Notes under the pieces: generated by a model
What the model saw: only the letters and a program-made list of their open reading frames with translations
Told to the model about the DNA's origin: nothing
Database searches by the model: none
Part shown: piece by piece, positions 19,229-41,840 of the stretch
Layout of the letters: every line of letters begins with the position of its first letter
Numbering within the stretch: the first letter of the stretch is position 1
Position numbers and translations under genes: made by a program
Assembly: GCA_951406725.2 (NCBI GenBank)
Contig: OX597824.1
Location: forward strand, 69,626,001-69,690,000
Length of the DNA stretch: 64,000 bases
Source: Octopus vulgaris
Lineage: Eukaryota
Reading direction: 5' to 3'

Positions 19229-19488
19229 CTGTTCCTTCTCGAGCCATGCCTGGCTCAAAAGAGCTGGTTTCCCGGTCCGTCGCAGGTGAGCTGCAAGATG
19301 CAGGAGGAAAGAGTGAGAGAAAGTTGTGGTGAAAGAGTCAGCAGAAGTTTGCAATTACCTTCTACCGGAGCCGCGTGGAGCTTAGGTGTTTCGCCCATAA
19401 ACACACATATCGCCCGGTCTGAGCTTCGAACCCGCGATCCCTCGACCGCGAGTCCGCTGCTCGAACCACTAGGCCATGTGCCACCACA
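19229..19488 (-). mobile_element. SINE family C head with a D-type tail
   Basis: Highly similar to 11766-12038. Confidence 0.8.
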
Positions 19489-27163: not shown

Positions 27164-27244
27164 GGTATTCAGGTCACTGCCTTGAATCGAACTCGGAATC
27201 TTGTGGTTAGTAGCCCGCGCACTTAACTACTACGCCATATGCCC
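26902..27244 (-). mobile_element. tRNA-headed SINE-like element with a hammerhead-like 3' module (left arm of inverted dimer)
   Basis: Minus strand GGGCATATGGCGTAGTAGTTAAG (A box)..GAGTTCGATTC (B box), (AAC)/(AAT)n, then GACACTTGATG..GGCTG..CAGCCGAAACATTGTGTT. Confidence 0.75.
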
Positions 27245-37296: not shown

Positions 37297-37426
37297 GAAG
37301 TCGCATGGCTCAGCGGTCAGAGCGTCGAACTTACGACCGTGAGGTTGTGAGTTCGAATCCCGGACCGGGATGCGTGTTGTGTTCTTGAGCAAGACACTTT
37401 ATTTTACGTTGCTCCGGTTCACTCAG
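37297..37426 (+). mobile_element. SINE family D, 5' part
   Basis: TGGCTCAGCGG A box, GAGTTCGAATCC B box, then GTGTTGTGTTCTTGAGCAAGACACTT. Confidence 0.8.
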
Positions 37427-37721
37427 TTCGAAACGCCGCAGTGTTTTAAATTCCCCGTTATACTTCATTTTTAATACCTTCTAGCAGATTCGAACGTAAA
37501 TATATTATCTTATAGTTGTTGTTTATAATCATCGAAGAATATCTTTCTTTAGACGATACGTATTTATAATACCCGTGATACACCAGTGTAAGGGGGAATT
37601 TAAAATACTGCGGTGTTTCGAACTTCTTTTATGTCTCCTCAGTCAAAGCTACCAACAGACCGTAAAATCTAACAAGAGTACAATCAGTAAGCGAATTGTT
37701 TGTTGATGCAAGCTGATACCT

Positions 37722-37935
37722 ATTTCTTTATTACCCACAAGCGGCTAAACATAGAGGGGACAAACAAGGACAGACATAGGTATTAAGTCGATTACATCGA
37801 CCCCAGTGCGTAACTGGTACTTAATTTATCGACCACGAAAGGATGAAAGGCAAAGTCGACCTCGGCGGAATTTGAACTCAGAACATAAACAGCAGACGAA
37901 ATACGGCTACGCTAACGATTCTGCCAGCTCGCCAC
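37722..37935 (-). mobile_element. SINE family A with TSD
   Basis: CTGATACCT at 37713-37721 and 37936-37944. Confidence 0.85.
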
Positions 37936-38624: not shown

Positions 38625-38692
<68 letters not shown>

Positions 38693-38891
38693 TATATACA
38701 TAACGTACGTTCTCAAATAACCTTTGCATTTGATTTTTTAATGTCTCTACCCTCATACTTTCGTGAGTTGAATTGAGCAAACACTATATGAGAGAGATTT
38801 TCTTTAAGTATTGGAGATATTTTAAAAAGTTTTTTAGCTGCTATTTCTAATGAGTTCAGTATGCAAAGTAATTTATTTTACTAAGCCCTTT

Positions 38892-39294
<403 letters not shown>

Positions 39295-39475
39295 AAGGGC
39301 TTAGTAAAATAAATTACTTTGCCGCATACTGAACTCATTAGAAATAGCAGCTAAAAAACTTTTTTAAAACTATCTCCAATACTTAAAGAAAATCTCTCTC
39401 ATATAGTGTTTGCTCAATTCAACTCAATGAAAGTATGAGGGTAGAGACATTAAAAAATCAAATGCAAAGGTTATT

Positions 39476-39528
39476 TGAGAACGTACGTTTCAAGATTAGT
39501 CAAAATCGACACTTCTATCATCAGTTCA
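39476..39528 (-). ncRNA. Type I hammerhead ribozyme motif (copy with a stem I mismatch)
   Basis: Reverse complement of the 40274 motif, with TGAA instead of TGAG. Confidence 0.6.
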
Positions 39529-40031
39529 GAACTCCCTGGTTTGGATTTGAAAACACTGAAAGTGGGAGCATACCCTTTCGGCCTGTTATCGCTTCTGAAG
39601 ATCTGCTCAAAACTAACAGTGCTAGCAAATTCAAATATGCAAACGAAGAATTTCTGCTCTCCCCTTTCCACCAGCGTGGGTTAAAATCAGCAAACACTAT
39701 GCTTTTTTCGGTAAAATCCGAGGCATTATATAGAGAGAGATGAATTATAATTTCAACAATTGAGGGTAAAATTAATTAATTAATCAATTTCACAAAGTAT
39801 TCAGTATACAGGGACCATTTAAGGCGAATTCAAATTATTACATTATATAAAAGGGTCTTAGTAAAATAAATTACTTTGCCGCATACTGAACTCATTAGAA
39901 ATAGCAGCTAAAAAAACTTTTTTAAAACTATCTCCAATACTTAAAGAAAATCTCTTCATATAGTGTTTGCTCAATTCAACTCACGAAAGTATGAGGGTAG
40001 AGACATTAAAAAATCAAATGCAAAGGTTATT

Positions 40032-40084
40032 TGAGAACGTACGTTTCAAGATTAGTCAAAATCGACACTTCTATCATCAGCTCA
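40032..40084 (-). ncRNA. Type I hammerhead ribozyme motif
   Basis: Identical to the 40274-40326 motif. Confidence 0.7.
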
Positions 40085-40273
40085 GAACTCCCTGGTTTGG
40101 ATTTGAAAACACTGATTTTAACCCACGCTGGTGGAAAGGGGAGAGCAGAAATTCTTCGTTTGCATATTTGAATTTGCTAGCACTGTTAGTTTTGAGCAGA
40201 TCTTCAGAAGCGATAACAGGCCGAAAGGGTATGCTCCCACTTTCAGTGTTTTCAAATCCAAACCAGGGAGTTC

Positions 40274-40326
40274 TGAGCTGATGATAGAAGTGTCGATTTT
40301 GACTAATCTTGAAACGTACGTTCTCA
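40274..40326 (+). ncRNA. Type I hammerhead ribozyme motif
   Basis: TGAG-CTGATGA-[tAGAagtGTCGatttTGACtaaTCTt]-GAA-AC-GTAC-GT-T-CTCA: canonical core, stem I TGAG/CTCA, palindromic stem III, GUU site. Confidence 0.7.
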
Positions 40327-40606
40327 AATAACCTTTGCATTTGATTTTTTAATGTCTCTACCCTCATACTTTCGTGAGTTGAATTGAGCAAACACTATAT
40401 GAGAGAGATTTTCTTTAAGTATTAGAGATAGTTTTAAAAAAGTTTTTTTAGCTGCTATTTCTAATGAGTTCAGTATGCGGCAAAGTAATTTATTTTACTA
40501 AGCCCTTTTATATAATGTAATAATTTGAATTCGCCTTAAATGGTCCCTTTGTATACTGAATACTTGGTGAAATTGATTAATTAATTAATTTTACCCTCAA
40601 TTGTTG

Positions 40607-40647
<41 letters not shown>

Positions 40648-41115: not shown

Positions 41116-41139
41116 CAATCATACAGACTTGCCTCCTAG

Positions 41140-41840
41140 ATATTGGCTTCAAATTTTGGCATAAGGCCAGCAACTTAGCGGGAGGAGATAAGTCGATTAC
41201 ATCGACCCATGTACACAACTGGTACTTATTTTATCGACCCCGAAAGGATAAAAGACAAAGCTGACCTCGGCGGAACTTGAACTCAGAACGTAAAGACGGA
41301 CGAAATGCGGCTAAACATTTTTCCCTGCATATTAATAATTCTGCCTGCTCGCCTCCTTAAAGAGACAAATACTGATTTCAAATTTTGGCACAATGCCGGC
41401 AATTTCGAGGGAGGGGTTAAGTCGATTGCATCGACCCCAGTGATCAACTGGTACCTATTTTATCGCCCTCGAAACAATAAAAGGTAAAGTCAATCTTGGC
41501 AGAATTTGAACTCAGAATGTAAAGACAGACGAAATACCTATTTCTTTACTACCCACAAGGGGCGAAACACAGAGAGGACAAACAAGGACAGACAAACGGA
41601 TTAAGTCGATTATATCGACACCAGTGCGTAACTGGTACTTAATTTATTGAACCCGAAAGGATGAAAGGCAAAGTCGACCTCGGCGGAATTTGAACTCAGA
41701 ACGTAACGGCAGACGAAATACGGCTACGCATTTCGCCCGGCTTGCTAACGATTCTGCCAGCTCATAGCCTTTAGACAGACGAAATATCACTAAGCATTTT
41801 GTCCAGCGTGTTAATGACTGTGTCAGCTCGACACCTTATG
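41140..41840 (-). mobile_element. SINE family A array, including a full copy nested in another A copy
   Basis: AGACAGACGAAATA flanks the inner copy (about 41523 and about 41773). Confidence 0.85.

Follow-up and report, generated by a model that had tools for sequence, protein, structure and literature searches.

In Octopus vulgaris, a 556-nt repeat that is young, very abundant and non-coding carries one hammerhead ribozyme motif per unit. We think it probable that the family formed by this repeat works as a non-LTR (animal) retrozyme, and that the locus described here is one complex insertion of its unit. The locus lies within the window, that is, the whole stretch of 64,000 nucleotides of contig OX597824.1 that was analysed. 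The observations behind this reading are the motif itself, the unit, its tandem-plus-inverted layout, its (TA)n ends, its many copies in three organisms, and the lack of an ORF. In the proposed cycle, tandem copies would be transcribed via read-through, and the transcripts would cut themselves to unit length, a reaction for which the paired, double hammerhead is probably the most favourable form. The unit-length RNA may then be ligated to a circle, and the RT-endonuclease enzymes of Penelope-like retrotransposons (PLEs), as the putative mobiliser, would copy the RNA back into TA microsatellites. The cluster comprises the following features:

38629-38701, no strand: (TA)n tract to the left of the fourth piece
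38702-38899, plus strand: fourth piece, 5′-truncated, 197 nt, beginning at the 10-nt helix III palindrome
38899-39287, no strand: (TA)n/(CA)n tract of ~390 nt, from the fourth piece to the minus copy
39288-40115, minus strand: partial tandem of 1.5 units, 828 nt, from 79 nt before the first cut site to ~190 nt past the second, at (TA)n
39476-39528, minus strand: type I hammerhead motif whose core-closing helix I pair is an A.C mismatch (39525), predicted cut 39480/39479
39480-40035, minus strand: full repeat unit of 556 nt, predicted cut to predicted cut, non-coding, 34% GC, 64% paired as a circle
40032-40084, minus strand: type I hammerhead motif, intact, predicted cut 40036/40035
40112-40115, no strand: 4-nt microhomology CTGA at the head-to-head inversion junction
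40112-40610, plus strand: inverted copy of 0.9 unit, from 211 nt before the cut site to ~288 nt past it, at (TA)n
40274-40326, plus strand: intact copy of the type I hammerhead motif, with the cut predicted after GUU at 40322/40323
40610-40643, no strand: (TA)n tract to the right of the plus copy

A preliminary description of this DNA had reported three hammerhead motifs, and direct inspection of the sequence finds all three where it had placed them. The 53-nt motifs at 40274-40326 (+) and 40032-40084 (-) are identical, and the copy at 39476-39528 (-) is one base off, with UGAA in place of UGAG, which is the stem I mismatch already recorded there. All 13 core bases are intact in the three complete copies (both tandem-unit motifs and the inverted copy). 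The spacing of the minus-strand cores, given earlier as about 556 nt, is exactly 556 nt, and a fourth copy does start at 38702, 10 nt ahead of the predicted scissile bond. Stem III is self-complementary, as had been stated, with its detail now refined from an 8-mer: in the predicted fold the monomer helix III has 2 bp, closed by the palindromic tetraloop GUAC, and the stretch from A14 to U17 inclusive is a perfect 10-nt palindrome with a computed self-duplex energy of -12.2 kcal/mol. Helix II begins with a U.U mismatch in place of the usual G10.1-C11.1 pair and continues as 3 + 4 bp flanking a 3x3 internal loop, while helix I has 4 bp followed by 8 more pairs beyond an internal loop. GUU cleavage sites are slower than GUC sites. 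GUU is among the active hammerhead triplets (PMC3138052).

At 39525, the pairing base is present in all depth aligned in each of the four sequencing runs compared, and because none of this aligned family depth carries the mismatch base, the mismatch is either private to the copy at 39476-39528 or an assembly error. On 20 Mb of simulated sequence, a hammerhead descriptor returned 5 and 14 matches at the dinucleotide composition of the window and of the unit, respectively, equivalent to 0.016-0.045 chance matches expected per 64 kb. Taken alone this rate gives modest support, because the three motif copies share one origin. Rfam yielded no hammerhead match in the window at the gathering threshold or at E up to 10, where its 3 matches were weak and unrelated, one of them caused by the inverted repeat. 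A descriptor search of the opposite strand of the 556-nt unit found no second hammerhead, and so gives no sign of a viroid-like layout with two ribozymes.

The pieces of the cluster start at -211, -79 and -10 relative to the cut site, and end at ~+190 (twice) and +288. No piece ends at the cut site, and every piece reads across the scissile bond. The fourth piece and the minus copy end at the same position in the unit and have minority alleles in common. At 18 family-variable sites that were checked, all pieces agree except at two private sites, and one template lineage for all pieces is indicated, since the minority alleles at 39438 and 39643 are common to them. The two tandem passes differ at ~6/273 positions, which may reflect later mutations or assembly errors. 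We also note that, as the fourth piece starts exactly at the helix III palindrome (38702-38711), 10 nt of it precede the scissile bond, where its template must have been uncut or religated. The chance of a start falling within 10 nt of the scissile bond is ~4%.

This anatomy resembles that of PLE insertions, which are described as partly tandem, as carrying an inverted 5′ copy and an extension of one end, and as favouring microsatellites (PMC8557442). The octopus cluster has a partial tandem, an inverted copy, a microsatellite target and an extension, the last amounting to an end offset of ~97 nt as compared with the 30-40 bp tail reported for PLEs in the same source. Target-site duplications are not resolvable within (TA)n flanks. 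Priming through homology to (TA)n is not claimed, as the overlap of 2-6 nt is ambiguous and PLE priming in vitro is described as proceeding without homology (PMC11167929).

Nothing in the unit suggests a protein. It has a GC content of 0.336, its longest stop-free stretches are 84 aa (sense) and 111 aa (antisense), and the ATG in the hammerhead core opens 16 codons only. None of its frames had a Pfam match among the 140 window frames scanned, out of 173 passing the filter, and the same scan found no RT-endonuclease ORF in or beside the cluster. A tRNA scan found none in the cluster, and no pol III A or B box occurs in 39288-40610, whereas SINE heads elsewhere in the window carry them. An LTR layout is absent from the unit. 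Two structural features of the unit may be recorded here, namely a near-perfect, AT-rich hairpin at 39772-39800 and an imperfect long-range inverted repeat (39400-39430 with 39675-39700) that brackets the hammerhead region.

The 64-kb window contains no autonomous partner, and its only RT belongs to an APE-type LINE. This broken element occupies about 8400-9950 (+), with an RVT_1 fragment at 8541-8840; its RT was rejected as a mobiliser on account of its APE type. One fragment of the LINE matches, with 71% identity across 70% of the fragment, a protein in a cluster named from Octopus bimaculoides, a similarity that by itself points to an octopus as the probable host without fixing the species. 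Thirty-one recently active PLE families have been reported for Octopus vulgaris (PMC13282606). The window further contains tRNA-type SINE heads in which pol III A and B boxes occur as a pair (11974-12027, 19423-19476, 27184-27237 and 37306-37359), a second very common repeat family (for example at 37716-37912 and 41121-41770), and a 5′ half of U4 snRNA at 3840-3912 (-) scoring 57 bits in Rfam, which is truncated, has dispersed repeats on its flanks and is probably a pseudogene.

The unit is present in 20 of the 24 public DNA runs listed; these 20, none of them listed as RNA, come from three organisms and 8 studies. For comparison of the family, contigs from 4 of these runs were aligned to one 556-nt unit; they are short, and as assembled sequences carry no information on RNA ends, strand or level. 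Run X1 contributed 3780 aligned contigs, X9 2640 and X15 1590, about three quarters of them at >=95% identity and with depth in all 30 bins along the unit. Run X2, guessed to be RNA, contributed 8 low-depth contigs and says nothing on expression. Head-to-tail joints (alignments that go back 558 nt) occur in all four runs and define a unit of 556-558 nt. The share of aligned contigs that continue into unlike sequence is 0 in each of the four, among the loose ends listed and for contigs that are short. Summed depth in X9 reaches 1.8e5 to 1.7e6, compared with 21.7 for one long diverged contig; although this is not a copy number, a rough inference from the run data is that the family has thousands of copies. 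A family-specific 22-nt pattern had 0 matches in metagenomes and 0 in prokaryote genomes. Degenerate matches to the core plus palindrome (15 viral and 2 metagenomic) were dismissed as chance, as none had flanking helices or real similarity to the unit. The run variants, whose direction is not polarisable, comprise roughly as many A>G as T>C changes, and an A-to-G editing signature was not seen. A diverged subfamily of the unit is represented in X9 record 31 by a 630-nt contig, with 34 differences in 195 aligned bases.

Excess conservation of the core across genomic copies, on which the preliminary description had made its reading depend, receives weak-to-moderate support: a diverged variant keeps the core, but depletion of variants over the motif as a whole is not significant. 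The variant in question is the consensus of loose ends at 39543, which lines up in register with the motif's 5′ side over 30 nt and is built from 4 contigs of X9 and 2 of X1; the median length in X9 is 8, so that the full 30 nt may rest on one contig, and the comparison covers the 5′ side only. In our alignment 10 of the 30 positions differ, while the 6 fixed core bases are all unchanged (P about 0.07). Among the changes are N7 (CUGACGA), U to A at 10.1, and an A to G in helix I that could still pair. Among the family variants listed, two fall inside the 53-nt motif, both in loop 2, leaving the core and helices untouched. Excluding the private 39525, and with 13 substitution rows beyond those listed, listed variants hit 2 of 47 motif sites, where 4.5 were expected (P 0.15); leaving out loop 2, a post hoc choice, gives 0 against 4.1 expected (P 0.011). 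By the same listed variants, 4.8% of all 53-nt stretches of the unit are variant-free.

Folded as a circle, the hammerhead strand of the unit is 64% paired, with a z of -4.2 and 0 of 60 shuffles as stable; the opposite strand has a z of -2.5 and 1 of 60 shuffles as stable. Selection for this rod fold is unsupported, because family variants break its pairs at the random rate: 15 of the 39 listed substitutions do so, as compared with 15.3 expected at random (P 0.52). Covariation in the predicted rod was not seen among the family variants.

Folding calculations with ViennaRNA bear on how the motif might act. In a 713-nt transcript, a double hammerhead has an energy of -171.8 as compared with -159.9 kcal/mol for two monomers, and in trans the values are -28.0 and -13.4 kcal/mol. 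The double hammerhead is thus more stable than two monomers by 12-15 kcal/mol, and dimeric cleavage is plausible on these models. Neither hammerhead fold is the lowest-energy state, the free fold of the same transcript reaching -182.4 kcal/mol. Single motifs of 77 nt adopt the hammerhead fold at -6.7 (intact) and -4.6 kcal/mol (mismatched), with an MFE of -10.9 kcal/mol that corresponds to a different fold. The criterion for activity used in a 2026 preprint by Li, Clavereau and Pollet is two consecutive units with complete motifs and an MFE below -5 kcal/mol (10.64898/2026.07.22.740005). For the circle, energies are -135.3 kcal/mol when constrained to the hammerhead and -139.4 kcal/mol when free, with a helix I probability of 0.25. 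In the predicted circle the motif folds into an inactive hairpin that is 4 kcal/mol more stable than the active fold and could protect the circle from cutting. Published motifs vary in their behaviour: those of coral and mussel retrozymes are described as cutting as single motifs, an axolotl motif with the U.U mismatch and a 2-bp helix III is 22% cut as a monomer and cuts better as a dimer (both PMC7229834), and in vitro cleavage was seen for only 1 of 9 predicted dimers of Xenopus retrozymes (10.64898/2026.07.22.740005). The two sites at which octopus pieces end on the 3′ side are AU-rich and predicted to be open, with 0.57-0.76 unpaired as compared with 0.38 on average. This is in line with internal initiation by PLE RT, which is reported to start at fixed sites on unprocessed RNA and to insert in vitro without need of hammerhead cleavage (PMC11167929).

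The preliminary description had further proposed that the two tandem motifs could release a unit-length RNA, as in retrozymes. The retrozyme part of this interpretation gains from the tandem non-coding unit, its one type I hammerhead per unit, its many copies and their head-to-tail joints; unit-length release from this particular locus is doubtful. The mismatch of the downstream motif adjoins the core, so that in both modes one cut out of the two would be weak. In transcripts running through the entire cluster, two of the three motifs would be locked in a duplex with the inverted copy, to which 52-53 of their 53 bases pair in the predicted fold. Retrozymes are said to lack promoters (PMC7761336). 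On the mismatch, the inverted copy and the absence of pol III boxes, this locus is predicted to be a poor and unlikely source of RNA; it is probably a product of the mobility cycle and not a good source for it.

The closest known systems are the non-LTR retrozymes (PMC7229834; 10.64898/2026.07.22.740005), of which mussel units of 350-390 bp and the axolotl Rtz_353 are examples. As described there, they are likewise short non-coding tandem units with a GC content below 50%, a highly paired predicted circle and no internal promoter found (a statement that for the octopus covers pol III boxes and tRNA only), and each unit has a single type I hammerhead, with a tetraloop and a helix III of 2 bp (PMC7229834). 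The U.U at the base of helix II, as described for the axolotl HHR_Amex2, matches the octopus motif (PMC7229834). At 556 nt, the octopus unit is above the range of 150-450 bp given in PMC7229834 and within the 51-972 bp of the preprint (10.64898/2026.07.22.740005). It differs from this class in its GUU site, in its dispersed tandem-plus-inverted insertion in (TA)n and in its probable octopus host; its motif is locked in an inactive hairpin in the predicted circle, whereas most retrozyme circles in the published descriptions leave the motif free. Cleavage and circles of the octopus unit are putative.

Similarities extend to the hammerheads in PLE pLTRs (PMC4209133), including Poseidon of Anolis (PMC11167929), which are described as having a short core-adjacent helix I and a palindromic helix III/loop 3, and as occurring in partial tandem and inverted copies at AT-rich targets with one longer end. 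The minimal PLE hammerhead is characterised by a G10.1-C11.1 pair, an extra base after A9 and a helix II of 7-8 bp (PMC4209133). This set of features is not found in the octopus motif, which lacks the G10.1-C11.1 pair and the 7-8 bp helix II and has an extended helix I; the unit at this locus also has no RT-endonuclease ORF attached. The octopus motif does have the palindrome formed by 15.2-16.2 and loop 3, a trait of PLE hammerheads. The motif is closer to the canonical retrozyme type than to the minimal PLE one. Newt satellite 2 and the axolotl Rtz_331 offer another parallel, with a palindromic loop 3 in tandem repeats and a fold improved in the dimer (PMC7229834, PMC7761336); there helix III is described as a single pair, whereas the octopus motif has 2 pairs as a monomer and 8-10 as a dimer. 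The preprint derives retrozyme units from pLTRs (10.64898/2026.07.22.740005).

A competing account of the same data is that the unit is the pLTR or tail of an autonomous PLE, or a non-autonomous derivative whose template is a linear multimer that has not been cleaved, with the hammerhead as a passenger and no circle. The layout of partial tandem, inverted 5′ copy, one longer end and microsatellite target is that reported for PLE insertions (PMC8557442). PLE RT is described as starting internally on unprocessed RNA, with hammerhead mutants inserting equally well (PMC11167929), so that a linear multimer left uncut accounts for the layout equally well; Xenopus retrozymes are described as homologous to pLTRs (10.64898/2026.07.22.740005). 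Every piece here crosses the scissile bond, the tandem passes are non-identical (~6/273), and a rare link to an ORF is possible among the 267 loose ends beyond those listed. We nevertheless consider this account unlikely: in none of the four runs, whose contigs are short, does any share of the aligned contigs lead into unlike sequence, depth is present in all 30 bins and the unit joins back onto itself; the motif has neither the G10.1-C11.1 pair nor the 7-8 bp helix II that mark minimal PLE hammerheads; and the window holds no PLE ORF, the core ATG closing after 16 codons.

The hammerhead might instead be a weakened relic in a repeat that spreads without self-cleavage, as a structured retroposon or through duplication of microsatellites at the DNA level. 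The U.U at the base of helix II, the GUU site and an active fold above the lowest energy would suit such decay, as would the lack of support for rod selection from the variants and the inactivity of 8 of the 9 Xenopus dimers (10.64898/2026.07.22.740005). A relic would, however, hardly be expected to keep all 13 core bases in three of three copies, to be spared by listed variants in its core and helices, and to retain its core in a diverged variant; moreover, the axolotl hammerhead with U.U and a 2-bp helix III is reported to cleave, and better as a dimer (PMC7229834). Decay of this kind is distinctly improbable. Most remote of all is a chance match in an unrelated repeat that was then multiplied through duplication. 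The motif does have a single origin and no Rfam match, 0.016-0.045 matches are expected per 64 kb, and many windows are scanned. Chance explains poorly why each unit of a tandem, non-coding repeat with the anatomy of PLE insertions has one such motif, why its helix I is extended and its helix III palindromic, traits described for animal type I hammerheads (PMC4209133), and why a diverged variant conserves the core.

The retrozyme reading, which we prefer, can be carried further. The octopus may harbour a still-spreading retrozyme whose insertions record rolling-circle copying, by PLEs acting in trans, of a circle made by the ribozyme, with the palindromic helix III as a switch: the inactive hairpin would protect the monomer circle, and the double hammerhead would cut the multimer. 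We hold this extension only tentatively and regard it as rather doubtful. Its basis is the combination of permuted starts, lengths exceeding a single unit, and two fixed internal start sites in AU loops. Against copying of a circle, one circle would give identical passes, yet ~6/273 positions differ.

The retrozyme class is already known, and the octopus unit adds a member to it. Regarding cephalopods, we found no retrozyme in the literature searched, and supplements (that of PMC7229834 may list molluscs), Repbase or Dfam may hold one. In giant squid, 235 Rfam hammerhead matches are reported as a count without analysis (PMC6962438), and the main text of the paper on O. vulgaris repeats does not contain the words 'hammerhead', 'ribozyme' or 'retrozyme' (PMC13282606). 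Published mobilisation of animal retrozymes by PLEs has been deduced from co-occurrence and pLTR homology. In the octopus family, a non-coding hammerhead unit bears the footprint of PLE insertion, and the family's youth and abundance would allow statistics on its ends and variants. The natural mismatch at 39525 would separate monomer from dimer cleavage in a single assay. If the extended reading is true, this would be the first cephalopod retrozyme, and a test case for how retrozymes move and how their circles avoid self-cutting.
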